Part shown: positions 1 through 29,043 of the stretch, piece after piece
How the letters are laid out: each line of letters begins with the position of its first letter
Position numbering within the stretch: the stretch's first letter is position 1
Assembly: GCA_964496765.1 (NCBI GenBank)
Contig: CAZCAP010000001.1
Span: 83,814-115,813, forward strand
Origin: an uncultured archaeon
GTDB lineage: Archaea > Iainarchaeota > Iainarchaeia > Iainarchaeales > CSSED10-239
Length of the DNA: 32,000 nucleotides
Direction of reading: 5' to 3'
The notes under the pieces: model-generated
Databases searched by the model: none
Seen by the model: only the letters and a program-made list of their open reading frames with translations
What the model was told of the DNA's origin: nothing
Program-made: the position numbers and the translations under genes

Positions 1-549
1 ATAGATATCTGTCCCACCAATGACCACAGTATCTGTTTGATGTCCTTTTCTATAGGTTTTTGTTGCTGCTTCACCACAATTATTGCAAACAGCATCAAGA
101 TGAATCACATAATCAGAAATTGCCATTAAAAAACCAATATGATTTTTCCCATCTTTAAATGGAAATGGATCTCCAAGATAGGTTTGATTTAATCCGCTAG
201 TAAATACATTAATTCCTTGACTTGTTAATCTTTTAATAACATCAAGAATATCTGATTCAAAGAATTGAACCTCATCAATAAAAATATTTTTTAATGATTG
301 TTCTTTATTATTTGCATTAGAAAAATATGTAGAGCATATTTGATAGATCTCTTCTGATGTTTTCACAATATTTGCAGGGATTGCTCTCCCATCATGATTA
401 ACAACCTTCTCTTCTGAATATCTATGATCAATAAATGGTTTAAAGAGAAAAGATTTTCTTCTTCCAATCTCTTCTCTTGAAAATAGTCTTAGAAGTTCAG
501 TTGTTTTCCCTGAAAACATTGGTCCTGTAATTGTAGTGAGCTTACCCAT
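1..549 (-). CDS. tdk: Thymidine kinase (TK1 type), C-terminus cut by window edge
   Basis: Absent from the ORF track because it runs off the window. Reverse translation from ATG at 549-547 gives MGKLTTITGPMFSGKTTELLRLF (P-loop), then ...NIFIDEVQFFESDILD... and the zinc-ribbon part ...AVCNNCGEAATKTYRKG...VIGGTDIY. The frame is open to position 1. Confidence 0.9.
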   Translation of the reverse strand, partial: MGKLTTITGPMFSGKTTELLRLFSREEIGRRKSFLFKPFIDHRYSEEKVVNHDGRAIPANIVKTSEEIYQICSTYFSNANNKEQSLKNIFIDEVQFFESDILDVIKRLTSQGINVFTSGLNQTYLGDPFPFKDGKNHIGFLMAISDYVIHLDAVCNNCGEAATKTYRKGHQTDTVVIGGTDIY

Positions 550-562
550 AATTTATCATACA

Positions 563-1297
563 TTATTTAATTTTTTCAAAACTTGCTTTATCTAAAATAA
601 ATTTATACCCTGGCATTGGAACAAAACGCGTTTTAACTCCAAAATAATTATTTAAAATTTCAAGATAAACTTTTGTAGGAGGCATTTTATTTTTAATTCT
701 TAATTGCATTAAATCAAATTTTTTCTTTGTATATAATTTTTCACGTAATAATCTTTCAAATAAAATGCGTTTTTTAACCATATTATAAAATGCATAGTCA
801 TTCTTAAGTATATTAATTGCTTCTGGATTATTTTTACAATAGGACTCAATAATGTCCTTATCTGTAATTGTATGTTTATATTTTTTATATTCTTCATTAA
901 TTATTTTATTTGTTTTTTTTGTAAAAGTAAAAAAGGTTCTCCCTATGTTTTTACTTGTTTTTTTATCAATAATTAAAATTCCTTCTATATCTATATTTTT
1001 AAAAAACAGTTTATCTACATGCCCAGCAATATCTCCAACAGATGGAAGAGCAGGTTTATCATTGAACCTACGGCTAATATGAGAATGATAGGCCCTATCT
1101 TGAAGTTTGCCTAAGTTTAAACTTACGGTCCTTTTATTTCTAATCTTACTTATTTCTTCTAATTCAGAAAATGGAGCATTTTTCTTTGTAAAAATAGCTT
1201 CTTTTTTAGTTATGTTAGGAGTAGATTCAACAATTTCTTTTGAAGTTCTATATCCAATTGGCTTAACATATTTACTTAGTTTTTTTATTGGAGGCAT
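563..1297 (-). CDS. Orphan protein, member 1 of a 3-copy family with an H-S-H...LPSVGDI (JAMM/RadC-like) signature
   Basis: 244-aa ORF 13 nt upstream of tdk on the same strand. It shares three sequence blocks with ORFs 20603-21247 and 26368-27057 (see findings). I recognise no named family with confidence. Confidence 0.6.
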   Translation of the reverse strand: MPPIKKLSKYVKPIGYRTSKEIVESTPNITKKEAIFTKKNAPFSELEEISKIRNKRTVSLNLGKLQDRAYHSHISRRFNDKPALPSVGDIAGHVDKLFFKNIDIEGILIIDKKTSKNIGRTFFTFTKKTNKIINEEYKKYKHTITDKDIIESYCKNNPEAINILKNDYAFYNMVKKRILFERLLREKLYTKKKFDLMQLRIKNKMPPTKVYLEILNNYFGVKTRFVPMPGYKFILDKASFEKIK

Positions 1298-1360
1298 AAT
1301 ATCAAATAAAATTAAGAACCAGATATTTTAAAAATAGATTTCTTTTAAATTGTAAATAAA

Positions 1361-1645
1361 AGAGGCTAGTGGTCTGCTATAAGCCGCTTTCTGTACTAAA
1401 TTGGCAATCTGTCTTATGCGGAGGTAAATTTCTCCTTGCACCACACTCTTTCTGATAAATTTTTCAGCAATTCTTGTTTCTCCTCAGTGATTACACATCA
1501 CAGGATAACAGAAACAAGCTGTCCTTTTTCTGTTCAGAAAGCATCCTTTGCAGGATGTTTGTCTTTTTATTAAGGGTGAGCGGACTTTCCTTGTCTGTTA
1601 AACCCAAAGGCTTAACAAGCATGCCAAAACACAAACCACTAACAT
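1361..1645 (-). ncRNA. rnpB: RNase P RNA (archaeal type)
   Basis: Reverse strand. The P1 helix GUUAGUGGUUUG (1632-1643) pairs at all 12 positions, including G-U pairs, with CAGACCACUAGC (1365-1376). CR-I is ACAAGGAAAGUCCGCUC and CR-V is ACAGAAAGCGGCUUAUAG; together they can form P4 with the usual bulged U. There is a P3-like hairpin UUGUUAAGCCUUUGGGUUUAACAG, a TATA box about 26 nt upstream and an oligo-U run after the 3' end. It forms a GC-rich island in AT-rich DNA. Confidence 0.85.
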
Positions 1646-1665
1646 ATATATTAAGAGAAAAAGTA

Positions 1666-1673
1666 TATTTAAA
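1666..1673 (-). promoter_or_regulatory. TATA box (TTTAAATA) for RNase P RNA
   Basis: The reverse strand reads TTTAAATA, centred about 26 nt upstream of the first P1 nucleotide at 1643. Confidence 0.55.
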
Positions 1674-1720
1674 GATATTGATTGGAGGACAGTAAGTACT
1701 GTCCAACAAATATAACAATA

Positions 1721-2413
1721 TCACTTATTCCTAATTACTTCATTCACAGCTGAATAAAATCCACCCATAATTACATAAACAATAAATAACAAAATAATTG
1801 CACCAATATAGTACATTATATTTGCATTTATTCCCAATAATTGTAGGATTCCTAATAATATAGCAACGCCTAATAAATACATTACAAAGTAACCTATTAA
1901 AAAAAGCATTGAAACTAAAAAGTTTTTTGTCCAAATAGTCTTTAGATTAGATCTGAATGCAAAGAAGTTTTCGAATTTCTTATTTTGGAAATATTTAACA
2001 AATCCAACTAGTTTAATCAACTCTACAATTCCAGCAATAACCATGAATATTGCCATAATTATTGAAACAACTAGTATTAAGGCTGGATTTATTGTTGGAC
2101 TTAGTGTAATTAAATAATAGGGAATAAAACCAATTAAAACAATTATTCCTTCAATTATAAAAAATATAATTGATACAAGAATAAACATTCCAGAAAACTT
2201 AAGTATGTTTCCCCAGGTTTTATTATTATATTTATTTAATTTTCCTGTATTAAGTAAACTTGCAAGGAAACCAGTACCTAGAATCAAGATAAGTGCTGCA
2301 GAGATTATTAAAGTAACCTCACTAATTAATGCAAAAAGCATAAGAGCAAAAATAATCCATAAAAATTTGATATTAATATATGGGAAACCAAGTGTTTTTC
2401 TTAAATCAAACAT
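1721..2413 (-). CDS. Polytopic membrane protein, unknown function
   Basis: 230-aa ORF made almost entirely of long hydrophobic segments (about 6 predicted by eye). No recognisable motif. Confidence 0.65.
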   Translation of the reverse strand: MFDLRKTLGFPYINIKFLWIIFALMLFALISEVTLIISAALILILGTGFLASLLNTGKLNKYNNKTWGNILKFSGMFILVSIIFFIIEGIIVLIGFIPYYLITLSPTINPALILVVSIIMAIFMVIAGIVELIKLVGFVKYFQNKKFENFFAFRSNLKTIWTKNFLVSMLFLIGYFVMYLLGVAILLGILQLLGINANIMYYIGAIILLFIVYVIMGGFYSAVNEVIRNK

Positions 2414-3708: not shown

Positions 3709-5206
3709 AGGAGGTGATCCGTCCGCAGGTTCCCCTACGGACACCTTGTTACAACTTAGTCTGTCTCGCGGGATATAGAATTACTTCGACCTCTAAAGAT
3801 TGAAGTTCATCCACACTCCACTCAACTGGCTTGATGGGCGGTGTGTGCAAGGCGCAGGGACATATTCACCGCGCGATAGTGACACGCGATTACTGGGGAT
3901 TCCAGCTTCATGAGGGTGAGTTGCAACCCTCAATCCGGACTTGGATTACGTTTCTGTGATTGCCACCCCCTTTCGGGTTAGAGACACATTGTCGTAACCA
4001 TTGTATGCCGCGTGTTGCCCAGGACATTAGCGCTATACAGACCTACCTTCGCCCATTCCTTCCTCATTGTTACCAATGCAGTCTTATTAGAGTGCCTCTC
4101 CATCATAAAGAAAGAAAGTAGCAACTAATAATATGGGTCTCGCCCGTTACCTGAGTTAACAGGAAGCTTCGCAGTACGAGCTGACGATGGCCATACAGCA
4201 GCTTTCAGCGTATCAGGTAAACCCTTCAGATTGACCGTCATCTGGCTGTCAGCCCTGGTGAGATATCTGGCGTTTCATCCAATTAAACCGCAGCATCCAC
4301 CCCTTGTAGTGCACCCCCGCCAATTCCATTAAGTTTCAGTCTTGCGACCATACTTCCCAGGTGGTGGATTTAATGATTTCTCTTCGGCCCTGAGTTAACT
4401 CGTAGTTAACCCAACACCTAATCCACATCGTTTACAGCTGGGACTAACCGGGTATCTAATCCGGGTTGCGCCCCCAGCTTTCGTGTCTCATTGTCAGATT
4501 AGTTCTCGTTTGGCGCCTTCGCCACAGGTGGTCCTCCTAGTATCTTAAGATTCTACTCCTACTCTAGGAATACCCCAAACGTCTCCCTATCTCTAGTTCT
4601 GTCAGTATCTTTTGCAATTCAACTGATTAAGTCAGCTGCTTTCACAAAAGACTTAACAAACCAACTACACACGCTTTAAACCAAATAATGCTGGATACCA
4701 CTCGGGGATTACGTATTACCGCGGCGGCTGGCACGCATATTGCCCCCCCCTTATTCGTATTGTTATCGACACAATACAAAAGCTTACGAATGTAAGCACT
4801 TGGAATTCCTTTATCACGGTTTCCCGCATTGTAAAATTTTCGTAACTGCTGCACCCCGTAGGGCTAGGAACATTATCTCAGTTTCCTTCTCCGGGCTCCC
4901 TCTCTCAAGGCCCGTACAGATCTTCGGCTTGGTAGGCAATTACCCTGCCAACTACCTAATCTGACGCAGTCCCATCTTTTCGCACTTAAATCTACATGAC
5001 AACTTAAGCCTTTGAAAAATCAATCATTCCAGATTTGATTTTCTATAGAGCATTATCCTTAGTTTCCCAAGTTTTACTCTTCAAAAAGGTAGGTTGACTA
5101 CGCGTTACTGAGCCGTTCGCCAAAGTTCATCATGGTTAGAACTTTTAGACTTGCATGTCTTAGTCGAATTCCAATAGCAGTACCCACCAGCAGGATCAGC
5201 TGGAAT
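3709..5206 (-). rRNA. rrs: 16S (SSU) rRNA, archaeal
   Basis: Reverse strand. The 5' end reads ATTCCAGCTGATCCTGCTGGTGGGTACTGCTATTGGAATTCGACTAAG. Internal conserved blocks are GTGCCAGCCGCCGCGGTAATAC and GAAACTTAATGGAATTGGCGGGGGTGCAC. The 3' end reads AAGTTGTAACAAGGTGTCCGTAGGGGAACCTGCGGACGGATCACCTCCT. Length is about 1.5 kb, so there is no room for a large intron. Confidence 0.97.
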
Positions 5207-5980: not shown

Positions 5981-6448
5981 CTAATTTTTTTTATTTTTAG
6001 ATAGTATTTCTTTTGCAATTTTTTGTCTTTTCTTAATATCCATTTTAGGCCCAACTAATGTAGTTATATATCCAGGATATTTTTCAAAATAAATATTACC
6101 TGACAACTCTCCAAACTTGGAATCATCAATTTTGGGCATAGGGTATAATTTAGTATGAATGTGATTTACTCCTTGCCCTTCAAAAACCATTGCAACCCTC
6201 TTAACCCCTAATCCTTTTTCAAGAATCTTTGCAACCTTCTTTGAAATTAATAGTAACTTTGTATATACGCTAGGAGATAAATCAAAAACATAAGAACCAT
6301 AATGTTCTTTTGTTAATACAAGAGTTGCACCTTTTATATTTGGGTGGGCATCTAAAATAGCAATAAAAATTTTATCTTCATATATGATTGCAGCTTCAAG
6401 TTCCTTCTTTGCAATCTTACAAAACACACAATCAGATTTTTGCTTCAT
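5981..6448 (-). CDS. HIT-family protein with a variant triad (H-I-H-T-K)
   Basis: 155 aa. The N-terminal CVFCKI and the block GQGVNHIHTKLYP align with the canonical paralog's QSVFHLHFHIIP (9753-10154). The third His is replaced by Lys. Confidence 0.75.
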   Translation of the reverse strand: MKQKSDCVFCKIAKKELEAAIIYEDKIFIAILDAHPNIKGATLVLTKEHYGSYVFDLSPSVYTKLLLISKKVAKILEKGLGVKRVAMVFEGQGVNHIHTKLYPMPKIDDSKFGELSGNIYFEKYPGYITTLVGPKMDIKKRQKIAKEILSKNKKN

Positions 6449-8515: not shown

Positions 8516-9742
8516 ATGAGGCTCAGATTTGCTAAATTTGGAAAAATAAGAGAAAACATTAAATCAACTAGTTCTAGAAAAATAAATAACACATCAACTA
8601 AAGAAAGAATTGCTAATAACACAAGCTTCAGTAGAAAATTAACTTCAACTAGCAATCTATCTATTAAGAAAAAAATACTTGCTGCACAAAAATTAGCAAA
8701 AACATTACCTTCATTAAAACAAAAGGAGCCAGCTAAACCATCTATTAAAAAAAAAATCAAACAAATTAGTAGGCCCCCACTAGTAAATGAACATATATCA
8801 AAAACTAAAATTAATCCAATTAATAATTTACACGATCTAATTTCTCAAAAGAAACAATTGATTCATAATCACATTGAATGGATATGGACTGAATATAATA
8901 AAAAAAGGTTAGCCAAAGATAAAAGAATAAGCACAACGATAATTTATGAAACACTAAAAGCAAAAGAACTATTGAAAGAAACAGAACCTCTTGAGATAAA
9001 AGTAACTAGTCATTATGATGTAGAAATAGAAGAACTAAAGAAAGAATTAAAAGAATATGAGGAAAACCCTGAACGGATTGTATTTAAAATTAAAAAAGAA
9101 GAAGCAAAAATAAGGGACCTTGATGAGAAAATTAAAAAAATAAACCTTCAATCTATTATTGATGAACGTAACATCTTACATAATGAGCTTACGGTACTCT
9201 CAAAGTTAAACCAAGAACACCATCATCTAAGAGATGAATTTACTAAACAAAAATATGTTCGTGATGGAAAATTGAACGTAATTGCATTACTAAAGGAAAA
9301 GTTAGATTCAATCTGTAAAGAACATAAAGTAACAGGAAGGTTAAAGATAGCATTAAACTCTTTGGTTGATAATTATACAGTTAAATATTTTAAACAAGAT
9401 ATAATTAATCACATGAAATATAGAAATCAAAGAATAGATGAACTAGACCTAAAATATTCACAAAAGGAACATGAACTTAAACCATTACTTTTTGAGAAAG
9501 AAAATATTGAAAAAAATATCAATTATCAAAAGAAACATTTACCCGTTCATCAAAGAATTGTAAAAAAATATGAGATAAGAAGAGAAATAGATGATCTTGA
9601 AGGATTAAGAAGAAGAGAAATAAACCAAATAAAGGTTGAAAAAACAAATGAACAAATCTATTCTCAAAAATTAGATCAAGCAAGAAAATTAGCCAAAATT
9701 GAAAATAGATTATATAAACTTATTAATTATATTAAAAAATAG
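8516..9742 (+). CDS. Lys/Glu-rich coiled-coil orphan protein
   Basis: 408-aa ORF. It has a basic, S/T/N-rich N-terminal ~90 aa followed by long heptad-like K/E/L/I-rich stretches. I saw no catalytic motif. Confidence 0.6.
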   Translation: MRLRFAKFGKIRENIKSTSSRKINNTSTKERIANNTSFSRKLTSTSNLSIKKKILAAQKLAKTLPSLKQKEPAKPSIKKKIKQISRPPLVNEHISKTKINPINNLHDLISQKKQLIHNHIEWIWTEYNKKRLAKDKRISTTIIYETLKAKELLKETEPLEIKVTSHYDVEIEELKKELKEYEENPERIVFKIKKEEAKIRDLDEKIKKINLQSIIDERNILHNELTVLSKLNQEHHHLRDEFTKQKYVRDGKLNVIALLKEKLDSICKEHKVTGRLKIALNSLVDNYTVKYFKQDIINHMKYRNQRIDELDLKYSQKEHELKPLLFEKENIEKNINYQKKHLPVHQRIVKKYEIRREIDDLEGLRRREINQIKVEKTNEQIYSQKLDQARKLAKIENRLYKLINYIKK

Positions 9743-9752
9743 AGGAATTAAT

Positions 9753-10154
9753 ATGAAAGATTGTATATTTTGTAAAATTAAGAAAGAAAAGGTTCCTTGT
9801 CACAAAGTTTATGAGGACAAGGATTTTATTGCTTTCCTGGACATCAATCCAATTGCAAAAGGGCATACTCTAGTTATTCCAAAGAAGCATTTCACAAACG
9901 TTCTTGATGCTGATGATAAATTACTTAAAAAATTACTTCCAGTGATTAAAAAGATAATGTTGAACCACAAAGAAAAACTTAATTGTGATGGATTCAATAT
10001 CCTAAATGCAAATGAAAAAGCAGGCCAACAATCAGTATTCCATCTCCACTTCCATATCATTCCAAGATTTAATGATGATGGGTATAACACATGGCCAATA
10101 ACAGGATATGAAAACGAAGATCTTACAGAATTATCTGAAAAATTAAAATTGTGA
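9753..10154 (+). CDS. HIT-family nucleotide hydrolase/transferase (canonical histidine triad)
   Basis: The start is taken at MKDCIFCKI (ATG 9753), which is preceded by AGAGGA. The track ORF starts 18 codons earlier, inside the previous gene. Canonical HLHFHIIPR triad. Confidence 0.9.
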   Translation: MKDCIFCKIKKEKVPCHKVYEDKDFIAFLDINPIAKGHTLVIPKKHFTNVLDADDKLLKKLLPVIKKIMLNHKEKLNCDGFNILNANEKAGQQSVFHLHFHIIPRFNDDGYNTWPITGYENEDLTELSEKLKL

Positions 10155-10793: not shown

Positions 10794-12194
10794 ATGAATA
10801 AAAAGAATACAATAATAATTACATGTGTTTTTTTAATATTAACAGTCTATGGATTTACTATGAATGAACAAAAAAATAAATTTGGAAAAGATGTATTCCA
10901 AGCTCAAGTTGCTGGACATTTCTATCCAGGAACAAGCAAGAACATAATAAAAGACCTAGATTCTTTCTTTAATAAAGCAGAAATGAATTATTCTGGAGAA
11001 GAAGTCTTTGCTCTTATTACTCCACATGCTGGCTACGATTATTCTGGACAAACAGCAATGGATGCATATAAAAAACTTTATTTTTCTCTTATTTTATCTA
11101 ATAAAAATAATTATAATGTAATTGTTATTGGTCCTGCCCACAGGCTCTATTTTAAAGGAATTTCAACTCTTTCTTCCTCTGAGTATCAAACACCTCTTGG
11201 TAAAGTAAAGCTTGATAACACAGAATTAAAAAAATACACTAATGATTCTGCATTCAAAGATGAGCATTCAATAGAAGTGCAAATTCCTTTTCTACAATAC
11301 ATATTTAATAAAGCAAATAAAAATCTTACAATCACTCCAATTCTATTGGGGGATATAAATAAATCAGAAACCATTAAGATAGTAAGTGAACTAATAGATG
11401 AAAACACAATAATCATTGTCTCATCTGATCTTTCTCATTTTAATAAAGATAAAATTGCAAGAGAGATTGATAAAATTTGTATAAATAATATTTTATCTGG
11501 AGAAGAAGATATTGATGCCTGCGGAGAAGCAGGAATAAATATATTAAACGAACTTGTAGCGAAAGACAAGAACATTAAAAAAGAATTTATTAATTATTCA
11601 AACTCTGGAGACGTCACTGGAGATAAAAATTCTGTTGTTGGGTATGCTTCCTTTTCCTATTATTATGCATCCAGTGAAAATATATTAATTAAGCTTGCAA
11701 GAAAAGCAATATATGATAAACTATCTAATCAAAAAACAAACAAAGAAGAAATAAAAGAAATTATTCCAAAGGAATACCTAGAAACAAAAGGTGTGTTTGT
11801 AACTCTTACAATAAATAATAGACTACGAGGTTGTATTGGGAATATTATAGGAACCAGTCCTATCTATGAAGGGGTAATTGATAATGCAAAAAATTCAGCA
11901 TTCTCTGATCCAAGATTTAATCAACTAACAAATAAAGAGCTTGAGAAAACTGATATTGAGGTTTCTATTCTTTCTGTCCCATCTCCTTGTTCCCTCAGAG
12001 ATATTAAAAAGAATGATGGGGTAATTCTAGAAAAAGGATCTAATTCAGCAATTTATTTACCACAGGTTTGGGATCAGCTACCAAGCAAGGATGAATTTCT
12101 TGGAACGCTTTGTGAAAAAGCAGGTTTAGAATGGGATTGCTACAATGATTCAAAAACAATTTTCAAGAAGTTTAATGTGGAGATAATTAAATGA
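10794..12194 (+). CDS. AmmeMemoRadiSam system fusion protein: Memo-like (component B) N-terminal half plus AMMECR1 (component A) C-terminal half
   Basis: The Memo part has QVAGHFYPG, ITPHAGYDYSG and HSIEVQIPFLQ. The AMMECR1 part has GVFVTLTINNRLRGCIGNI and DPRFNQL. The N-terminal 22 aa are hydrophobic (IIITCVFLILTVYGF), and an alternative start exists at M23 (10860). Confidence 0.88.
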   Translation: MNKKNTIIITCVFLILTVYGFTMNEQKNKFGKDVFQAQVAGHFYPGTSKNIIKDLDSFFNKAEMNYSGEEVFALITPHAGYDYSGQTAMDAYKKLYFSLILSNKNNYNVIVIGPAHRLYFKGISTLSSSEYQTPLGKVKLDNTELKKYTNDSAFKDEHSIEVQIPFLQYIFNKANKNLTITPILLGDINKSETIKIVSELIDENTIIIVSSDLSHFNKDKIAREIDKICINNILSGEEDIDACGEAGINILNELVAKDKNIKKEFINYSNSGDVTGDKNSVVGYASFSYYYASSENILIKLARKAIYDKLSNQKTNKEEIKEIIPKEYLETKGVFVTLTINNRLRGCIGNIIGTSPIYEGVIDNAKNSAFSDPRFNQLTNKELEKTDIEVSILSVPSPCSLRDIKKNDGVILEKGSNSAIYLPQVWDQLPSKDEFLGTLCEKAGLEWDCYNDSKTIFKKFNVEIIK

Positions 12195-13060
12195 AAGAAG
12201 CTCTCTTTTATAAAAAACTCAAAGATAAAAAAGTTCAATGTATTGCCTGTAATAGGTTTTGTGTTATTCCCATTGAAGAGACTGGTTTTTGTAGGGTTAG
12301 GAAAAATATAAATGGTATTCTTTATTCTCTGGTTTATGGTAAACCTGTTGCAATAAATGTGGATCCAATAGAGAAAAAACCTATTTATGATTTTCTTCCA
12401 GGAACAAAGACTTTAAGCTTTGGCACCCTTGGATGTAACTTTGATTGTTCATTCTGTCAAAATTATAATATCTCTAATGCTAAAGAAGAAAAAGAAATAA
12501 ACAAGATTTGCAACACATCTCCAAAAAAAATTGTTTCTCTTGCGCTCGAAAATAATTGTCCAAGCATATCATACACCTATACTGAACCAACTATCTTTAT
12601 AGAATATGCTCTTGAAACAATGAAACTTGCAAACGAAAATGGGCTAAAGAATATTTGGGTAACAAATGGGTACATGTCAAGTGATGTTGCAAAAGAAATA
12701 ACTAAATATTTAGATGCAATAAACATAGATATTAAAGGGGATAGTGAATTCTATAAAAAGCTAATTAATGAAACCGATGTTAACCTAGTTCTTAAAAATA
12801 TAAAATTCTTTAAGGAGAATAATGTACACGTTGAGGTTACAAACCTTCTAATTGAAAGAGAGAACACAAGACCTGAACAAATTGAATGGATATGCAAAGA
12901 GATTGCAAAAATATCAAAGGATATTCCAATTCATTTTTCAAGAAGCTTTCCTCACTATAGAATGCGAAAAATAACTCCTACCAGGATAGATACTTTAAAA
13001 CTTGCAGAAAAAATTGCAAAAAAAGAAGGACTAAAGAAAGTATATCTTGGAAATATTTAA
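12191..13060 (+). CDS. AmmeMemoRadiSam system radical SAM enzyme
   Basis: The cluster motif is GCNFDCSFCQN (C-x3-C-x2-C), with an N-terminal Cys cluster CIACNRFC...C. Its start overlaps the upstream stop by 4 nt (ATGA). Confidence 0.88.
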   Translation: MKEALFYKKLKDKKVQCIACNRFCVIPIEETGFCRVRKNINGILYSLVYGKPVAINVDPIEKKPIYDFLPGTKTLSFGTLGCNFDCSFCQNYNISNAKEEKEINKICNTSPKKIVSLALENNCPSISYTYTEPTIFIEYALETMKLANENGLKNIWVTNGYMSSDVAKEITKYLDAINIDIKGDSEFYKKLINETDVNLVLKNIKFFKENNVHVEVTNLLIERENTRPEQIEWICKEIAKISKDIPIHFSRSFPHYRMRKITPTRIDTLKLAEKIAKKEGLKKVYLGNI

Positions 13061-16871: not shown

Positions 16872-17807
16872 TTATCTTAAATAATATTTATATCCAACAA
16901 GTTTATAGACTAATTTTGCTAGGGTATAGCTTTCAGGAAAATAATCATCTTCCTTCCCTGTTGGTGTAAACTCAACAATATCTGCACCAATTACATTCTT
17001 TTCTCTAAATATAACTCGAAGAAGAGAAAGAAGTTGGTTATAGTTTATTCCTCCAGGCTCAAGTGCTGCTGTGTTTCTAATAATTGATGGATCAAGAACA
17101 TCCACATCAATTGAGATAAAGATATTCTTTGGTAGTTTTTTTAATTGATTAAGAAATAATTTGTTTTTAGATAAATCATAAAACGTGCTTTGATTGTCCA
17201 AGAAGTCTTGCATTTTTATTAAAGAGATATTTTTATTATCTTTACTTTTTAGAAATTCATTTTCATAAAAGTCCATTGTTCTAACTCCAACAATCAAAGA
17301 TTTATGTTTTTCAGAAATTATTTTTGTAGTACATGCCTGCCACCAGGTATCCTTTCCCCATGAATCATAGCAATCAGGATGAGTATCAAAAACAATTATT
17401 CCAAATTCTTCATTCTTCTTTTCATAGATCTTTTCAAAAGCAGAGATTAGAGGAATAGTTGTTGAATGATCAGATCCTAGAATAATTGGAAACTTATCCT
17501 TAGTTAGTTTAAGATCAGAGAGATAATTAACTATCTTTGGAGATATCTTAATAAAATCCTTATCTTTAAGAGAGAAAATATTTTCTGTATATATCCCTTG
17601 GAGATAAGATTCTTTTCCAAGTTCAAGATCAAAATAATCAATATTAGTGGATGCTTTAAGGATTACTTCTGGTGCCCTGTAGGCTCCACTACCATGAGCA
17701 AGAGGGATATCATAGGAAATTGGTATGATTATAACCTTTGATTTCTTTTTGTCACTATGTTCCTTTGGAACATTCATAAAATTTAATTTTTTTACCATTG
17801 GGATCAT
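16872..17807 (-). CDS. speB: Agmatinase / ureohydrolase family
   Basis: The arginase-fold Mn-ligand blocks are GSDHSTT, VFDTHPDCYD, SIDVDVLDPS and GADIVEFTP. The 4-nt start/stop overlap with the upstream decarboxylase supports the agmatine substrate call only by context. Confidence 0.82.
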   Translation of the reverse strand: MIPMVKKLNFMNVPKEHSDKKKSKVIIIPISYDIPLAHGSGAYRAPEVILKASTNIDYFDLELGKESYLQGIYTENIFSLKDKDFIKISPKIVNYLSDLKLTKDKFPIILGSDHSTTIPLISAFEKIYEKKNEEFGIIVFDTHPDCYDSWGKDTWWQACTTKIISEKHKSLIVGVRTMDFYENEFLKSKDNKNISLIKMQDFLDNQSTFYDLSKNKLFLNQLKKLPKNIFISIDVDVLDPSIIRNTAALEPGGINYNQLLSLLRVIFREKNVIGADIVEFTPTGKEDDYFPESYTLAKLVYKLVGYKYYLR

Positions 17808-18868
17808 TCCTCAAACTCTATTTCTGGTCTTTCTAAATTAAAAAGATCTGTGTAATAGATGTAAGCTCCTGCATTTAAAAAAATTAATTTAGCTCCTATC
17901 TTCGGTTCTTTTCCTTCTTTGAAATACACCCTATACCTAAATATATCTTCTGATGCTGGGGTTAATCCCTTTATTGTGAAAGGAGTTCCTTTTTCAGCAT
18001 CCACATCATCAACCTCACCATCAACCAATAATTTAATGTGGGTTACAAGTGTATCCATTGATGAATTGAAAAGAGAAGCGTCTATAAAGATGGTATTATC
18101 CACAATATTCTTGATTGTACTAACAAGCTTACCAGCAGGAGCAGCAATTGCTCTTCCTGGCTCAATAATTAATTGAATATTATTTTTATTTACAAAAGTT
18201 TTTAGTTCTTTTATTTCTTTGTAAACATTATCAATTACAGAAACACTTATGTTCTTGTAGGGAACAGGAATTCCTCCACCAATATCTAAATATTTAATTA
18301 TACTTATTGTTTCTTTGGTTAATGAATCAGATAATTCATTAATTAATTCCCATTCAGATAGATTTTGAGTTTTTCTATGAACATGCACACCAAGTGCTTC
18401 AATTTTTTTATTACCTTTTAGTTTAGAAATTAATTCATTTACTTCTTTGGAATAGAATCCATAAACAAAATACCTTCCTGTTTGAATTGTGTATTCTTTT
18501 AATCTCATTCTTAAAAGAAGAGTGATTTTTGTTTCTTGGGAGGTATCACTGTCCAAGAAATATAACAAGTTATTTAAATCATTTTGATTATCAACAATAA
18601 ATTTATTTATTTTATTTTTAAATAAAATATCAAGTTCTTCTTTTTCTGGAGAATGGAGCATAAACCAAATCTTTGTTTTATCTTTAACATAGATTAATTC
18701 GTTTATATGATGAAGTAGGAAACTTGATGTTGTGTTGTCTTCCAGGATTGTTGTGAGATATGGATTAGATTTAACACTATAGGCAATAATATTTGATAAT
18801 TCACTTAATTTATTATACTCTGATATTACCTTTGACTTTGAAAATATAAATTTTGCTTTTGACAACAT
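17804..18868 (-). CDS. PLP-dependent Orn/Arg/DAP-decarboxylase-fold enzyme (putative arginine decarboxylase)
   Basis: The PLP-lysine block is AYSVKSNP, the phosphate-binding block is DIGGGIPVPY, and EPGRAIAAPAG and NAGAYIYY are present. The usual G-P-x-C-x-x-x-D block reads GLTPASED, so there is no Cys. Substrate is inferred from the neighbouring gene. Confidence 0.75.
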   Translation of the reverse strand: MLSKAKFIFSKSKVISEYNKLSELSNIIAYSVKSNPYLTTILEDNTTSSFLLHHINELIYVKDKTKIWFMLHSPEKEELDILFKNKINKFIVDNQNDLNNLLYFLDSDTSQETKITLLLRMRLKEYTIQTGRYFVYGFYSKEVNELISKLKGNKKIEALGVHVHRKTQNLSEWELINELSDSLTKETISIIKYLDIGGGIPVPYKNISVSVIDNVYKEIKELKTFVNKNNIQLIIEPGRAIAAPAGKLVSTIKNIVDNTIFIDASLFNSSMDTLVTHIKLLVDGEVDDVDAEKGTPFTIKGLTPASEDIFRYRVYFKEGKEPKIGAKLIFLNAGAYIYYTDLFNLERPEIEFEE

Positions 18869-18881
18869 AGTTTAAACCATT

Positions 18882-19538
18882 TTATTTTATTTCACAAACA
18901 TATTCAGGGAAACTATCAACTAAATCTGTTGTTGACATCTTTTTTGGCTCCAATAAACCAGTTTTTTTGTTTTTAACTAAATAATCTATAACTCCTTTTT
19001 TAAAATTAAGATGAGTGACCTTCTCAATCCCTAAAGATAAAAGATCTGTTCTATACAAAATAACCGCTCCCTTACTTGTTGGCTTAAATCCAAGATGCTC
19101 TGCAAATCCAGGAAAGCTTTCAAACATCCAAGTATTTATAACTATTTTTTTAATATTATTTTTTTTACAATGTTTTTTAAGATAATTAATTGAAGTTTTA
19201 ATTTGATGAAGATCGCTTATTGTTTTAGGACCCTTCCGCTCTATCTTTTCTATATATAATATTTTTCCATCTCGTTTTGATTCAACAAAATAATTTTTTG
19301 AAAAAATTCCAACATTATCTCTCCAAACAATAGTATGATAATTATTATTTTCAATGAAGCTATGACCTCTTTCATATATATCTCTAAATAGTTCTTTGTG
19401 TGATTTCCTAATTTTATCATTCTTGATTATATTTTCATTAATTACTACTTTTTTATTATACTTCTTATCTAAGTAATCAAATACTTCATTTACTCTTTCT
19501 TGTTTCCTAGTTGTTTTACGAAAAGGTATAAATCTCAT
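18882..19538 (-). CDS. Orphan protein inside the dhs-decarboxylase-agmatinase cluster, weakly GNAT-like
   Basis: 218-aa ORF. ...IEKIERKGPKTISDLHQIKTSINYLKK...IVINTWMFESFPGFAEHLGFKP loosely recalls the GNAT acetyl-CoA-binding region and the terminal ...lGF motif. The resemblance is weak. Confidence 0.45.
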   Translation of the reverse strand: MRFIPFRKTTRKQERVNEVFDYLDKKYNKKVVINENIIKNDKIRKSHKELFRDIYERGHSFIENNNYHTIVWRDNVGIFSKNYFVESKRDGKILYIEKIERKGPKTISDLHQIKTSINYLKKHCKKNNIKKIVINTWMFESFPGFAEHLGFKPTSKGAVILYRTDLLSLGIEKVTHLNFKKGVIDYLVKNKKTGLLEPKKMSTTDLVDSFPEYVCEIK

Positions 19539-19550
19539 ATAATCATCAAA

Positions 19551-20489
19551 TTACTTAATTATTCCTTCATTAACTAGATCATCCAATGCTTTTGTTATTG
19601 CTATTGGGAAAGTAATGGTCACGTCTCCAATCACAGTGACTGCGTCTGCATCATCCTTTATCTTACCCCAGGATTTTGCTTCATCTGTTGTTGCTCCTGA
19701 AAGTGAACCAGACTTAGGAGATGCAGTTGTCATATAGAGTGCATAGTCTGCTCCTCCGTTAATCAAAGTTGTTAAAATCACGTGATGCTTAGAAATTCCA
19801 CCACCAAGAGCAATTATTCCTTTCTTCTCATCATGACTTGTTGAAAAAATAATATCTTTAAAATCATTTATAATATCCACATTGAAATCAGGATGATCTT
19901 GTTTAAACATATAAAGATGGAACCCAAATGAACCATCAGTTATTGCAGGACAGAAAATTGGAACATTATTCTTTGCTGCTTGATAGAGAATAGAGTTTTC
20001 ATCATTTAATTTTAATCCAATCTCTTTAATCAATTCAGAGATTTGCCAAACTTTCTTAATACCATACAAATCCAATAAAAGTTTTTGCATCTTTCCTTCA
20101 AAATTAGAATAGCTCTCACTTGTTATATAAATATCCCCAACCCTATTATGTCCCTTCTCATATAATTCTTCATCATTTGAAGAAAAGGTACCTAAAATAA
20201 ACTTTTCTCCATCTGCTTTCATAATATCTTCTTCAATTGAACCAACAGTAGTTACAATAACATCACACATTTTTAATTTAATTAGTTGTGCAAAAAAACC
20301 TCTAAGTCCAGAAGTCACCATATTAGAAGTAAATGAAAAATATATTTTTGCTCCATTCTTTTTCATTTTTTTAATTAACTCACTAGCTCTATATAGTTCA
20401 TAGGATTGAAAACCAACCCCAGAATAGGAATTAACTAATTCTGATACTGTTAGTCCTTTCTTCCAAAATAAATCCTTTGTGTATTGCAT
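19551..20489 (-). CDS. dys: Deoxyhypusine synthase
   Basis: The start is taken at MQYTKDLFWKKG, 24 codons downstream of the track's ORF start. Motifs are GGGISKHH and TTDEAKSWGKI, which carries the catalytic Lys context EAxSWGK. Confidence 0.9.
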   Translation of the reverse strand: MQYTKDLFWKKGLTVSELVNSYSGVGFQSYELYRASELIKKMKKNGAKIYFSFTSNMVTSGLRGFFAQLIKLKMCDVIVTTVGSIEEDIMKADGEKFILGTFSSNDEELYEKGHNRVGDIYITSESYSNFEGKMQKLLLDLYGIKKVWQISELIKEIGLKLNDENSILYQAAKNNVPIFCPAITDGSFGFHLYMFKQDHPDFNVDIINDFKDIIFSTSHDEKKGIIALGGGISKHHVILTTLINGGADYALYMTTASPKSGSLSGATTDEAKSWGKIKDDADAVTVIGDVTITFPIAITKALDDLVNEGIIK

Positions 20490-20602
20490 AATTTTATCAC
20501 ATAATAAGTATATTATATATATTTTATGAGAAAAAGCAAATATAAATATATTTATTAACAAAAAGCAGACTTTTTAAACCTAATTTACATATAAATAGAT
20601 AT

Positions 20603-21247
20603 ATGCCTTTAAGAAAGCCAATATCTGTTCCAGAACCAAGAATATTTAAATATTCAGCTATTGGTAGAAACAAATTTTCAAAAAAATTAAAACTGGATCC
20701 AGAAATTAATCAAAAGGAAACAGCTCTACTTATATTACCAGGAAAAAATGGTATTCATGAAATTGCAAGAGAAAGAAGAAAAAAAGCAGTTGTTGTTGAT
20801 GATCAAAAACTTGAAAACAATTTAAATAATTTTTTTTTAAAGATGCATTCAAAGGGAATACTTAACTTTAGAAACAGAGCGCGTATTCTACACACCCACA
20901 TCATGGATTACAAAAAAGTAATCAAGGGTGTTGAGAAATTTGTTGCTCTCCCAAGCATTTCTGATATAAAGGATCTAATGAATAGCTATCAAAGACTAAG
21001 ACATGGCTATGAAATAATAGGTGTGTTTGATTCAAAAAGAAATGAATGTGGATACACAGTAATAAAAATAAACAGAGAAAAGATAAGTAAAGATAATCTT
21101 AAGTTTATTGCTGATCTTAAAGAAAACTCACAGGGGGATAAAGAAATTCTTTATTCTAGATTATCAAGAATGGGACTTGAGATATACTTTACTCCAGTGC
21201 CAGGATACAAGCTTGATAGAAATTTTAATTATGTTAAAGAAAAATAA
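20603..21247 (+). CDS. Orphan protein, member 2 of the 3-copy H-T-H...LPSISDI family
   Basis: 214-aa ORF divergent from dhs. It shares the HTH...LPSISDI block, following hydrophobic strands and the C-terminal YFTPVPGYKL block with ORFs 563-1297 and 26368-27057. Confidence 0.6.
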   Translation: MPLRKPISVPEPRIFKYSAIGRNKFSKKLKLDPEINQKETALLILPGKNGIHEIARERRKKAVVVDDQKLENNLNNFFLKMHSKGILNFRNRARILHTHIMDYKKVIKGVEKFVALPSISDIKDLMNSYQRLRHGYEIIGVFDSKRNECGYTVIKINREKISKDNLKFIADLKENSQGDKEILYSRLSRMGLEIYFTPVPGYKLDRNFNYVKEK

Positions 21248-23739: not shown

Positions 23740-23868
23740 TTAATACACCTCATATCTTTTTTTTCTTATTTACTTAAATAAACAACTAGAAAAGGCAGAA
23801 AAACACTCCTTTTCAAATATAACTGCTATAATACAGTTATTTCTTAGATATTATATATATATGAAAGG

Positions 23869-23877
23869 TTTTATAAA
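23869..23877 (+). promoter_or_regulatory. TATA box (TTTTATAAA) for SRP RNA
   Basis: It is centred about 29 nt upstream of the first paired nucleotide of the SRP RNA terminal helix (23902). Confidence 0.55.
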
Positions 23878-23897
23878 CCTATTGGTGCTTTACCTTT

Positions 23898-24170
23898 ATT
23901 TGAGCAGGTTGGGGGGTTTGTGGTCCCTTGTAACCGGAAATCCACATCACGCCGGAACTATACCTATTAGAAGGGGAACAAGCAATATGCTACCCTTTAT
24001 AAAATTGCTGACAATTCGTCCACGAAGATCGAATTTATTAGCTAACCCTGCCAGGTCCGGAAGGAAGCAGCAGTATTCTAATGGTTTGGTGCTTTATGGG
24101 TAACGGATTCGAGATCTTGTAAAGTCAAGTAGTAGATTAAACTGGTCTTCGACTAATGGGTGCTCATAAT
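23898..24170 (+). ncRNA. Signal recognition particle RNA (archaeal 7S type)
   Basis: The helix-8 core is CCAGGTCCGGAAGGAAGCAGC with a GGAA tetraloop (24051-24071). The terminal helix pairs GAGCA (23902-23906) with TGCTC (24161-24165). Helix-5 pairings are CCTATTAG (23963-23970) with CTAATGGG (24153-24160), and AAGATCGAAT with ATTCGAGATCTT. Two Alu-domain hairpins have complementary loops GTGG and CCAC. The ends are approximate to within about 5 nt. Track ORF 23861-24103 is spurious. Confidence 0.85.
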
Positions 24171-26362: not shown

Positions 26363-26367
26363 TTTTT

Positions 26368-27057
26368 TTATTTCCTTTTTTCTTTAAAACACATTGAACT
26401 TTTTTTAAATACAAATCCATCGTTTGCTAGAAATTTAATTGTAACACCAAATTCATTATAAATATCAAATAAAATCTTAGTAGATAGGCCAATCAACTGC
26501 TCTCTGTATTCATCTTTTGGCTTGTTGCCATCAAAATACTTATCTAATTTTCTTTTTTCAATTATTGCATCATATTCATTGATTGCTCTTTCTCGAATAT
26601 ATTTTTTTAATGTAAGATAATCTATTACCCCGGGTCTTTCTTTTCTAGTAAACATCTTCGCATAAATTTTCTGGAATAAACTATTATTATTTTTAAGAAC
26701 ATCTATTTTATTATTCATTATTTTATTATCTACTTTAAATACAATTGCACCCTGTACCTGTTTATCAGAAACAACTACAATCACATCACTATATTTTTTC
26801 TTAAGACCATAGGGTTTGAATATATCTAATATGCTTGGAAGTATTGCATCTTTATAATAGTGAGTATGTATATCATATCCTTTTCTATTAAGTACTAACT
26901 TTCTCTCAAGTACACTTCTAAAAGAATTAAAAAGTGTTTTTTTCAGTTCAACATTCCCTTTAACTGGTTTAAAAAAAGCAGCTTCTTTCCTATCAAATTT
27001 ATACAGTTGCTCCACCTGTTTCAGGATAGGTTTTCTTGACTTATTTACTAACTTCAT
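26368..27057 (-). CDS. Orphan protein, member 3 of the 3-copy family (H-T-H-x8-S-x2-D, nearest to JAMM spacing)
   Basis: 229-aa ORF convergent with thrS. DIHTHYYKDAILPSILDIFKP is followed by VIVVVSDKQVQGAIVFKV. The C-terminal block is FGVTIKFLANDGFVF. Confidence 0.6.
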   Translation of the reverse strand: MKLVNKSRKPILKQVEQLYKFDRKEAAFFKPVKGNVELKKTLFNSFRSVLERKLVLNRKGYDIHTHYYKDAILPSILDIFKPYGLKKKYSDVIVVVSDKQVQGAIVFKVDNKIMNNKIDVLKNNNSLFQKIYAKMFTRKERPGVIDYLTLKKYIRERAINEYDAIIEKRKLDKYFDGNKPKDEYREQLIGLSTKILFDIYNEFGVTIKFLANDGFVFKKSSMCFKEKRK

Positions 27058-27503
27058 AAATTAATCCAAATTTATTATTTAATTAAATATCTAATGTCGG
27101 GAACTTGATTCAAATTTGCAAAGCATTAAGCACAAGATCCTAAATCATGGCTATTAAATAACTCAGGAATCTGTATATTATAAATATATTAGAAAAGATA
27201 TGTTTTTAAAAAGAAGTTAAAAAATAGTGATTCTATAAACCTAAAGTGGTGTGTAAAAAAAATTGAGTTTTTGAAAATCATTAACTAAATAACTTTCCTC
27301 AAAAAAACAATAAGTTCTAGCTTAAGCATACTAGTTTAAGAAAGATGCGAACCTTTCCAACCCTTTCTACACACCAATAAAATTAAGATACAGAATAATT
27401 ATAAATCTATCGTTTAGAGATTATGCCGACTAATAGATAGTATTAAAAACAAGAAAAAAGAAATTTAATCAATAGTTACTTCAAGCTTAATTTTAACAAA
27501 AAA

Positions 27504-27585
27504 TGCAGGGTACAGGATTCGAACCTGCGAAGCACTAAGCAATGGATTTTGAGTCCATCCCCTTTGACCGCTCGGGAAACCCTGC
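27504..27585 (-). tRNA. tRNA-Leu (anticodon CAA)
   Basis: The reverse strand reads GCAGGGTTTCCCGAGCGGTCAAAGGGGATGGACTCAAAATCCATTGCTTAGTGCTTCGCAGGTTCGAATCCTGTACCCTGCA. The anticodon loop is CTCAAAA, there is a long variable arm, and the acceptor stem is GCAGGGT/ACCCTGC with A73. Confidence 0.92.
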
Positions 27586-27590
27586 CTTAA

Positions 27591-27622
27591 CCTCTTGCGC
27601 CAGGTTAACGAGCGCATGGTTG
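27591..27622 (-). repeat. GC-rich ~35-nt element, copy B, abutting the tRNA-Leu 5' end
   Basis: The reverse strand reads CAACCATGCGCTCGTTAACCTGGCGCAAGAGG, containing the hairpin GCGC-N11-GCGC nested in AACC...GGTT. It is similar to copy A at 6801-6835. Confidence 0.5.
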
Positions 27623-27733
27623 ACATATTAATAAATAATTTATTCAGTTATTCTTAAATAATATATACATAGATACTTATTTTAATCTTTATTATTAAAA
27701 TAAAAAATAGAAAGAAGATAATAAAGTAATTAT

Positions 27734-28978
27734 TTACTTCTTCTCTGAAGTAGTAACGTTATTTGTAACCATATTTACTTTCTTCTGAAACACATAGAAA
27801 TAAACAGTAGTGGTTATATTTGTAGCAATTATAACTAGGAATGCAATAGGCAATATCATAACTGTTACAGGATTAACTATATTCATTGCAATTGGAATGG
27901 TTGCTAAAACTGCAGCAGCAAGGCCTCTTGCATGTAAAGAAAAAATAACTTCTTTGTCATTTCTAATTTCTGCATTCTCTTTAGCTAATATCTTAATAAC
28001 TAGAGATCTTGCAATTAAAGATAAAACAATAACTGCTATTGAAATCAAAAGAACCATTTGATTAATACCAGAAAAGTCAACTATTAGGCCTAAATATATA
28101 AAGAAAAAGGCTTTAATAAATAAAGATATTTCTGTTTGAAATTTGGTAATGGTCTCACTTAATACAAACTCTTTTGTTCTAAGTATCCTTGTTAATTCAG
28201 CACTGTTTCCTAGTATAATTCCAAACACAAGTGCTCCAATTGCCCCATTACCCTTTGCGAACTCAATTAAAACATAAAGTATAATTAAAAAAGATAAAGT
28301 TAAAAGATACCCATATTCCTTTGCATAATTAAAGTCTCTTAGTACCTTCATCCAAATTATCCCACCAACACCAACAATTACAATTGCAATTGCATAGGCA
28401 CCCAAGAGGTTTTGAGCAATGGATGGAATGCTTGTTGTTTTTGCTAATATTATATCAATTACAACCATTGCAATAACAACACACAATGAATCTGTAATTG
28501 CAGATTCAAGAGTTAATAATGTTTTTGTTCCTGGACTTGCTTTTGTATCCTTAATTAGAGGTATGATTACAGCAGATGATGTTCCTCCAACAATGGCTCC
28601 AATTAAGATACCATAGAGAATTGGAATTGCAAATACAAGATTTAAAAATAAAGTTATAAAAGTAACAGTGAAAATGAAAACAAGAACAGTGAAAATAGTG
28701 GTTTTACTTAGCTCCTTTAGAACCTTATAGAAATTAAGAGATAATCCACCTTCAAATAATAATATCATTAATGCAAGTGCACCCACAAAAGGAGCAAATG
28801 CTTTTAGGGTTGATAAATAGGTGTTAGAGATTAAATGCAAACCAGGCCCTATTAGAAAACCAATAACTATTAAAAATACTAAATCAGATATCTTTGTTTT
28901 TCTTAGGAATAGGTTTCCAAAGAAACCAACAAGAAAAACACCAGCAATGGATAATAATAAAATACCTGTATTAATCAT
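27734..28978 (-). CDS. Cation:proton antiporter (Na+/H+ exchanger family)
   Basis: 414 aa with about 11-12 hydrophobic segments. The layout and blocks such as FEGGLSL, ESAITDS and GIILG are typical of CPA-type exchangers. Confidence 0.8.
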   Translation of the reverse strand: MINTGILLLSIAGVFLVGFFGNLFLRKTKISDLVFLIVIGFLIGPGLHLISNTYLSTLKAFAPFVGALALMILLFEGGLSLNFYKVLKELSKTTIFTVLVFIFTVTFITLFLNLVFAIPILYGILIGAIVGGTSSAVIIPLIKDTKASPGTKTLLTLESAITDSLCVVIAMVVIDIILAKTTSIPSIAQNLLGAYAIAIVIVGVGGIIWMKVLRDFNYAKEYGYLLTLSFLIILYVLIEFAKGNGAIGALVFGIILGNSAELTRILRTKEFVLSETITKFQTEISLFIKAFFFIYLGLIVDFSGINQMVLLISIAVIVLSLIARSLVIKILAKENAEIRNDKEVIFSLHARGLAAAVLATIPIAMNIVNPVTVMILPIAFLVIIATNITTTVYFYVFQKKVNMVTNNVTTSEKK

Positions 28979-29043
28979 ATTTATATGGTATAATAAAAAT
29001 ATTTATAAACACTATTAATTCAAGGAAAGATGAAGGAATTAAT

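Follow-up and report, generated by a model that had tools for sequence, protein, structure and literature searches.

Three genes within a 32,000-nucleotide stretch of archaeal DNA (the window) probably code for proteins of the JAMM/MPN+ (JAB) metallohydrolase superfamily, in which they fall into a divergent archaeal family that so far has no annotation. The family is real, fairly large, archaeal and unannotated, rather than a three-gene orphan. A first-pass annotation had read in these proteins a metal site of the JAMM/MPN+ type, and this reading was supported by conservation of 92-99% at the candidate catalytic positions, by a list of Foldseek matches dominated by JAMM enzymes and by profile-profile alignment (hhalign E 5.5e-5). 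It is weakened by a glutamate that aligns only in a low-confidence extension, by non-canonical motif spacing and by the lack of a ubiquitin-like (Ubl) partner gene nearby. By analogy with JAMM enzymes we further predict that the family likely consists of active zinc-dependent JAMM/MPN+ amidohydrolases; homology to JAMM, taken alone, we rate higher than this.

Three genes and the family to which they belong

The three genes are copy 1 (positions 563..1297, minus strand, 244 aa), copy 2 (20603..21247, plus strand, 214 aa) and copy 3 (26368..27057, minus strand, 229 aa). All three are hypothetical genes; the product of copy 3, the most divergent of the window's three family members, was the protein modelled by AF2. 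The first-pass annotation had these open reading frames and their lengths right, as it did all of the peptide strings that it quoted and the His-to-Ser spacers of 8 (copy 3), 12 (copy 1) and 18 residues (copy 2). In copy 3, the putative metal-site motif H64-T-H66-x8-S75-x2-D78, HTHYYKDAILPSILD, is encoded at 26824..26868 (minus strand), and the candidate general base, Glu25, at 26983..26985 (minus strand). The corresponding motif of copy 1 is HSH-x12-S-x2-D (1031-1087, minus strand) with Glu33 as the candidate catalytic glutamate (1199-1201, minus strand), while that of copy 2 is HTH-x18-S-x2-D (20891-20965, plus strand) with Glu39 as the candidate (20717-20719, plus strand). The window is AT-rich and archaeal (GC 28-37%), and it also encodes an archaeal 16S rRNA, SRP RNA, FEN1, deoxyhypusine synthase, FtsZ, ThrRS and MCM-era housekeeping genes.

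Motif counts tie the three copies together. In the six-frame translation of the window, LPS..DI occurs three times, always within copies 1-3, against 0.01 occurrences expected from a shuffled ORF set. Similarly, H.H-x(5-25)-PS..D was found three times against 0.006 expected from shuffles, and the C-terminal block G[VLI]x[ITV]xF..G[YF] three times against 0.05 expected. The order of the three motifs is identical in copies 1, 2 and 3.

Pairwise similarity among the three copies was not significant, either by BLASTP (E 0.005 to >1) or by phmmer against the window's ORF set (E 0.05-0.4), and therefore cannot carry a claim of paralogy; a MAFFT alignment of the three sequences alone misplaced the copy 2 motif. 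Their homology is instead established at the level of sequence profiles. The ortholog sets of copy 1 and copy 2 were homologous over their full length by hhalign (probability 99%, E 3.8e-18). Moreover, a hidden Markov model built from these two sets, with copy 3 left out, recovered copy 3 over residues 14-228 with 25 bits (E 6.7e-8), the second-best ORF in the window reaching only 4.9 bits. The earlier statement that the copies are "clearly paralogous" thus holds as regards homology by profiles, and was overstated as regards pairwise comparison.

A word-indexed search of 5.8 billion proteins returned nine relatives for copy 1, five for copy 2 and, for copy 3, no match besides copy 3 itself. 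The orthologs of copy 1 are 40-82% identical. Exhaustive HMMER searching, with a 15-sequence alignment as the query and 1.84 billion cluster representatives, metagenomes included, as the target, expanded the family to at least 281 clusters (50% identity level) at E<=1e-3, 68 of them at E<=1e-10. Among the members found in this way is an ortholog of copy 3, P0038, which is 52% identical to it. Most members are 180-280 aa long. All 281 clusters are without a name, and where a source label is given it reads "hypothetical protein [archaeon]". One locus, L006, is labelled Chloroflexota; its contig is archaeal, carrying MCM, aIF1A, aIF2-beta and a RIO kinase. A scan of genome contigs with the copy 1 alignment returned two loci only, and a separate scan that used copy 3 as the confirmation sequence returned none.

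Searches of Pfam and NCBIfam gave no meaningful match for the three copies and 15 relatives at E<=10, and in particular none to the Pfam models JAB (PF01398), Prok-JAB (PF14464) or RadC (PF04002). PHROGs and PADLOC likewise yielded no meaningful match for the family, and a PDB sequence search with the family profiles yielded no JAMM match. Weak matches to Astacin, Peptidase_M54, DUF530 and Lactamase_B_6, each in one or two members and below the cut-off, were taken as chance. The description of these proteins as an orphan family is therefore apt as to naming, there being no Pfam or NCBIfam match, and wrong as to size; nor is it a three-copy family, since in relatives as many as four copies stand in tandem. 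Literature on JAMM, JAB or MPN together with DPANN contained no account that we could find. The family is new in that the searchable literature holds no description of it and no curated model covers it, and it is architecturally distinct within a well-known superfamily.

Candidate metal site and predicted fold

We examined the candidate catalytic residues at two depths of alignment. Among 15 close relatives, Glu25, His64, His66, Pro74, Ser75 and Asp78 (copy 3 numbering) fall in invariant columns. The same holds within the ortholog sets, where E33, H71, H73, P85, S86 and D89 of copy 1 and E39, H97, H99, P117, S118 and D121 of copy 2 (n=5) are invariant. Across 150 diverse members, conservation was 96% for E25, 99% for H64, 98% for H66, 92% for S75 and 98% for D78, with P74 at 93%; G103 was invariant, and G214 and Y/F215 were conserved at 94% and 89%. 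Many distant members have HTHP, the canonical JAMM form. Invariance of the two histidines, the serine, the aspartate and an upstream glutamate among orthologs, which the first-pass annotation had named as telling, was accordingly found in the close relatives, with each residue at 92-99% in the wider set.

The complete E/H/H/S/D set is present in 132/150 family sequences, all three window copies included. Such near-invariance would be unexpected without catalysis or metal binding, and it makes extremely unlikely the reading that these proteins are catalytically dead MPN- scaffolds which, like Rpn8 or CSN6, act as binding partners only. That reading would account for the few members in which the motif is lost (for example P0054, P0115 and P0117), and the paralogs found in tandem could heterodimerise, as Rpn11 does with Rpn8.

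Since neither curated models nor PDB sequences matched the family, we built our own JAMM reference alignment from eight domains (AfJAMM, AMSH-LP, Rpn11, CSN5, YicR/RadC, Mec+, lambda gpK and BRCC36). The reference sequences were entered by hand, and the resulting profile was then validated by a PDB search, in which it retrieved AMSH-LP, Rpn11, BRCC36, CSN5, AfJAMM, JAMM1 and RadC, the lowest E being 5e-45. Alignment of the family profile to this reference by hhalign gave a score of 36.1 (probability 66%), placing H64/H66/S75/D78 on H67/H69/S77/D80 of AfJAMM and aligning the next two strands as well. A greedier alignment also paired Glu25 with Glu22 of AfJAMM at low confidence. As controls, 60 column-shuffled profiles scored 9.1±1.9, none of them above 17.5, and the reversed profile scored 13.4, so that the family-JAMM score exceeds the mean of the shuffled profiles by about 14 SD. 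The best single partner was the minimal archaeal AfJAMM (E 1.8e-4); E. coli YicR (RadC) aligned more weakly (E 6e-3). The shallow profiles of subfamilies A2 and A3 were too weak to reach JAMM alone. Profile-profile comparison thus placed the HxH, Ser and Asp residues in register, above both kinds of control. The JAB/RadC-like relationship predicted earlier is accordingly upheld through our own reference profile and not through any curated JAB or RadC model.

An AF2 model of copy 3 from the 150-sequence alignment reached a pLDDT of 88.8 and a pTM of 0.83; with the 15-sequence alignment the pLDDT was 57, too low for use. The model begins with a helix (11-18), two strands (26-31 and 37-41) and a short helix (52-57), with Glu25 directly before or at the start of the first strand. 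Strand 60-67 ends with His64 and His66, and is followed by helix 76-84, of which Ser75 is the N-cap and Asp78 lies in the first turn, and by strands 91-96 and 101-109. Four helices (111-124, 126-136, 142-168 and 182-202) then precede the terminal strands (205-211, 215-218 and 223-226). Up to the helical segment the elements thus run alpha, beta(E), beta, alpha, beta(HxH), alpha(SxxD), beta, beta; this order and the placement of the residues match those of JAMM domains, as in the AfJAMM and AMSH-LP structures. When the copy 3 model was compared with the PDB by Foldseek, the best 37 matches were almost only JAMM/MPN+ enzymes, including Rpn11/PSMD14, CSN5, Sst2/AMSH, STAMBPL1/STAMBP, SRU_2040, Cap3 and BRCC36. 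The scores were modest, with E from 5.9e-3 to 0.1, probability up to 0.85 and TM 0.25-0.39, and the alignments with eukaryotic MPN+ enzymes had about 11-17% identity. Against the viral models of BFVD, the best matches were uncharacterised phage proteins (E 1.9e-5, TM 0.56); after these came proteins bearing the names MPN, JAB, metalloprotease, 26S proteasome subunit and NlpC/P60 (gpK-like). Structure prediction combined with Foldseek, one of the checks proposed in the first-pass annotation, thus favoured a JAMM relationship, and we predict that copy 3 adopts an MPN-like alpha/beta fold, at the modest level of these structural scores.

A likeness to JAMM could also be convergent or spurious, the proteins being another metal-dependent hydrolase or a non-enzymatic protein with a chance HxH...SxxD. 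This would fit the absence of matches both to the curated JAB models and in sequence searches of the PDB, the Foldseek TM values below 0.4, the non-canonical spacer length and the weak metallo-beta-lactamase matches in two members (E 0.027). We nevertheless consider it highly unlikely, given the near-invariant pentad: five residues agree in kind, order and secondary-structure position, a single superfamily supplies nearly all of the best 37 PDB matches, and the profile score stands far above its shuffled null. As to the metallo-beta-lactamase hydrolases in particular, whose fold is alpha-beta-beta-alpha, the HxHxDH signature is absent (HTH is followed by Y/I/P), the two Lactamase_B_6 matches were the only ones, and no metallo-beta-lactamase structure appeared among the Foldseek matches.

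Two regions set the family apart from JAMM domains of standard spacing. The first is the HxH-to-Ser spacer, which is 7 residues in 8/8 reference JAMM sequences and ranges from 6 to 31 in the family (median 12), with 7 residues in only 4/136 sequences; none of the three window copies keeps the canonical H-x-H-x7-S-x2-D spacing. The second lies between G103 and G214, whose distance varies from 44 to 131 residues across the family. In the copy 3 model this region contains the helical segment of residues 111-202 (26452..26727, minus strand), which follows the sixth strand, at the Ins-2 position of AMSH-type JAMM enzymes. Behind it come the conserved C-terminal beta-strands of copy 3, GVTIKFLANDGFVFKKSSMCFKE (26380..26448, minus strand), delineated by motif count, conservation and the AF2 model. 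Apart from the active site, no other part of the chain is as conserved as these terminal strands, whose consensus is G-I-K-I-R-F-V-P-M-P-G-Y-K-F, GIKIRFVPMPGYKF. A few members (P0095, P0121 and P0128) have C-terminal transmembrane helices. What had been described as an extra C-terminal domain of about 100 aa is more aptly seen as a run of helices that differs in length between members, behind which strongly conserved strands end the chain. We infer from the model that the C-terminal region would comprise a helical insertion of varying length, placed where AMSH-type enzymes have Ins-2, together with conserved closing strands, and not an independently appended domain.

By analogy with AfJAMM, Rpn11 and AMSH-LP, we infer zinc binding, catalysis, a role for the insert and a class of substrate along the following lines. 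His64, His66 and Asp78 of copy 3 would hold one Zn2+, and Glu25 would activate the zinc-bound water. Ser75, capping the helix that bears Asp78, would stabilise the tetrahedral intermediate, leading to hydrolysis of an amide bond, either peptide or isopeptide. The variable HxH-Ser loop and the helical insert may set substrate specificity, and the paralogs, which are dispersed in the window and arranged in tandem in relatives, may have different targets.

Genomic neighbourhoods and candidate substrates

Copy 1 occurs singly in the window, with a thymidine kinase gene (1..549, minus strand, cut by the window edge; translation MGKLTTITGPMFSGKT...) 13 nt downstream. This kinase falls into one cluster with the PF00265 gene of L007 and the neighbours in seven loci, and thymidine kinase is a conserved downstream neighbour of copy-1-type arrays. 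In six to seven loci the order is conserved: a DUF4013-like membrane protein, a conserved non-coding region, the copy-1-type array, thymidine kinase and DUF2666. The arrays of relatives are head-to-tail tandems of four copies (L005/L020), three copies (L007/L019 and L024) or two copies (L013, L014, L015, L023 and L025). Since the thymidine kinase locus holds three copies in L007, a close relative, and one in the window, copy number changes between close relatives.

At the copy 2 locus, deoxyhypusine synthase is divergent and is followed by copy 2, PspC and NUDIX on the same strand, an arrangement that is syntenic in L008; an RNase T-like exonuclease lies beyond the NUDIX gene. Copy 3 is convergent to ThrRS, as is its ortholog P0038 in L010-L012. 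In L008, the copy 3 gene is absent between ThrRS and DUF1015. A 239-aa gene adjoining the copy 3 ortholog was checked and is not a family member.

Altogether, the neighbours in the window and about 12 related loci comprise thymidine kinase, DUF2666, the DUF4013-like protein, RNase P RNA, deoxyhypusine synthase, PspC, NUDIX, ThrRS and FtsZ. Beta-grasp/ubiquitin-like, E1-like or partner-complex genes, with which ubiquitin-like deconjugases of the JAMM1, Rpn11, Cap3 and Mec+ types would be associated, were found neither in the window nor in these neighbourhoods, and no SAMP or E1 gene lay near any copy in the neighbourhoods examined. Viral or mobile origin was also considered and rejected, as tblastn against phage genomes and two IMG/VR scans gave no relatives. 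No link to a defence system was found by PADLOC, and the neighbourhoods are of housekeeping character.

These surroundings bear on what the predicted enzymes might act on. They may be isopeptidases whose target is a ubiquitin-like tag encoded elsewhere. A further reading is that the JAB-like fold serves a RadC-like or nucleic-acid/nucleotide function, its metal site hydrolysing or binding such a substrate. The 'PSxxD-I' form of the motif is of the prokaryotic JAB/RadC type, copy-1-type arrays have the RNase P RNA gene on one side and thymidine kinase on the other in the six to seven loci, the NUDIX hydrolase and then the RNase T-like exonuclease follow copy 2, and a ubiquitin-like partner gene was not found nearby. 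Yet the Pfam RadC model has no match, the hhalign comparison favours AfJAMM over RadC, the best structural matches are isopeptidases, and the gene order may merely reflect the common ancestry of closely related small genomes; in addition, the biochemical activity of RadC itself is unsettled. We regard this reading as decidedly unlikely, and a RadC-like or nucleotide role as a minority alternative, suggested solely by the neighbouring thymidine kinase, NUDIX, RNase T-like and RNase P RNA genes.

A broader proposal, rather unlikely in our estimation, is that the family arose when JAMM proteins radiated specifically within small-genome (DPANN-like) archaea, and that ubiquitin-like tags are not among its substrates. 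If so, the variable loop, the insert and the expanding and contracting arrays would reflect diversification towards several non-Ubl targets. Candidate targets would be nucleotides or nucleic acids connected with the conserved neighbourhood of RNase P RNA, thymidine kinase and NUDIX genes, or else proteins of a host or partner in an episymbiotic way of life.

Significance and relation to known systems

JAMM/MPN+ enzymes form the metalloprotease arm of ubiquitin-like signalling, being the enzyme type that removes ubiquitin-like tags, and their prokaryotic relatives serve for tracing the origin of such signalling. A family that combines the full set of candidate catalytic residues with a broken "fixed" HxH-x7-S spacing and a large variable insert would widen the sequence definition of the JAMM superfamily. 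It comprises at least 281 clusters that are invisible to Pfam and NCBIfam, and its assignment would provide annotation for several hypothetical genes in each of a number of very small genomes of archaea; in genomes of this size each retained gene is informative and expanded ones especially so. The conserved link to thymidine kinase, together with the lack of a nearby Ubl partner, poses a concrete experimental question about the substrate.

The closest comparison is with AfJAMM (AF2198, PDB 1OI0/1R5X; Prok-JAB), in which the same residues occur in the same order, E...HxH...PSxxD. Both have the Pro-Ser form of the motif, both are stand-alone proteins, and the distances from the N-terminus to the glutamate and from the glutamate to HxH are similar. 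The spacer is 7 residues in AfJAMM and 6-31 in the family (copy 3, 8; copy 1, 12; copy 2, 18). Unlike AfJAMM, the family has a helical segment of 44-131 residues before the last strands, and the copy 1 group has a conserved N-terminal tail, MPxIKKP...KPxGY.TPKEIIEST. Unlike minimal prokaryotic JAMM/JAB proteins in general, the family goes undetected by Pfam models.

With the eukaryotic enzymes the family would share the MPN core. AMSH-LP has an insertion after the sixth strand (Ins-2), as the family is predicted to have, and Rpn11 and CSN5, like the family, have helices C-terminal to the core. AMSH-LP, Sst2, Rpn11 and CSN5 differ in being eukaryotic, whereas the family is archaeal, is only 180-280 aa in length and shows no visible motif for a second zinc site. 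Unlike eukaryotic MPN+ enzymes, moreover, the family is not known to have a ubiquitin-like substrate or partner subunits.

RadC/YicR is a prokaryotic JAB protein with HxH-x7-PSxxD followed by a helix, and the family shares the PSxxD and the helix; it is also multi-copy in some genomes, as is RadC. The RadC-type domain, which reads HNHPSG...PSxxD and is recognised by PF04002, usually comes with an N-terminal helix-hairpin-helix module; this module is absent from the family, which has no match to PF04002. Cap3 (9ild_A) and phage JAB proteins of the lambda gpK type are structural matches to the copy 3 model. Unlike these, the family resides in neighbourhoods of housekeeping genes, with no PADLOC or PHROG match and no phage or IMG/VR relatives.

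Finally, the desampylases HvJAMM1 and PfJAMM1 (PDB 5LD9) are archaeal JAMM proteins whose catalytic residues are the same as the candidate residues of the family. They differ in that JAMM1 is found by standard JAB profiles (5LD9 was retrieved by our reference profile) and the family is not. For the family, an activity analogous to that of these JAMM1 desampylases would be the natural one to consider.

A putative RNase P RNA and the gene order around copy 1

The 423-nt gap upstream of copy 1 of the JAMM-like family (1298-1720 in the window) contains, on the minus strand at 1364-1640, what is likely a reduced RNase P RNA. Since its match to the Rfam model RF00010 reached 48.6 bits, below the gathering score of 100, the element was overlooked by the standard scan. 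Both the GGAAAGTCCG and the ACAGAAAGCGGCTTA boxes are present, and the DNA of the region is strongly conserved in the related loci L007 and L014, whereas the flanking proteins are just 49-61% identical.

This region forms part of an order that is kept in six to seven loci (window 1-2413, L007, L013, L014, L015, L016 and L023), namely a DUF4013-like membrane protein, the RNase P RNA region, an array of one to four copies of the predicted JAMM-like hydrolase, thymidine kinase and DUF2666. Only about 13 nt separate the array from the thymidine kinase gene, which suggests that the two are co-transcribed. In relatives, two to four divergent paralogs of the family are arranged head-to-tail in tandem (L005, 866-3898; L007, 5995-8124; L024, 3-2188; also L013, L014, L015, L023 and L025). 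Only one gene of the family is present at this locus in the window genome.

The copy 3 locus and other genes of the window

In the close relative L008 (11891-12235), DUF1015 directly follows ThrRS. Compared with window positions 26363-29043, this junction contains none of copy 3, tRNA-Leu (27504-27585 in the window) or the Na+/H+ exchanger (27734-28978). An ortholog of copy 3 is retained beside ThrRS in L010, which comes from a more distant genome.

Copy 2 adjoins a polyamine and hypusine gene cluster (16872-20561, minus strand) comprising an arginase-family enzyme, a PLP-dependent Orn/Arg decarboxylase, a 218-aa protein without assignment and deoxyhypusine synthase. Elsewhere in the window, 5981-6448 and 9699-10154 encode two paralogs of the HIT family, and at 10794-13060 a gene for a Memo-AMMECR1 fusion precedes one for a radical-SAM enzyme.

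Other RNA genes

A complete archaeal 16S rRNA gene occupies 3709-5206 on the minus strand. No 23S rRNA was found across the 32-kb window, and the rRNA genes are therefore unlinked. The next RNA gene downstream of the 16S rRNA is tRNA-Ala (2496-2569), with a 271-aa ORF between them. Archaeal SRP RNA was detected at 23897-24170 on the plus strand (120.5 bits); because it overlaps this RNA, an 80-aa ORF at 23861-24103 is probably not a real gene.

Family members beyond the window and predicted structural likeness to viral proteins

One family member is carried by L006 (DAOWAC010000034.1), a contig labelled as Chloroflexota bacterium. The same contig encodes MCM, aIF1A, aIF2-beta, a RIO kinase and a presenilin-like peptidase; it is archaeal and was probably mis-binned. 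Three members recovered by HMMER (P0095, P0121 and P0128) have two predicted C-terminal transmembrane helices placed after the conserved terminal strands, and would be membrane-anchored variants.

In fold searches, the full-length AF2 model of copy 3 resembled the structural protein ORF273 of Acidianus two-tailed virus (matches 4ats and Q3V4T6; TM 0.38-0.40, BFVD probability 0.98), as well as proteins of Acidianus rod-shaped virus 2. These modelled similarities point to a possible link, so far unrecognised, between the MPN-plus-helices architecture predicted for copy 3 and proteins of archaeal viruses.
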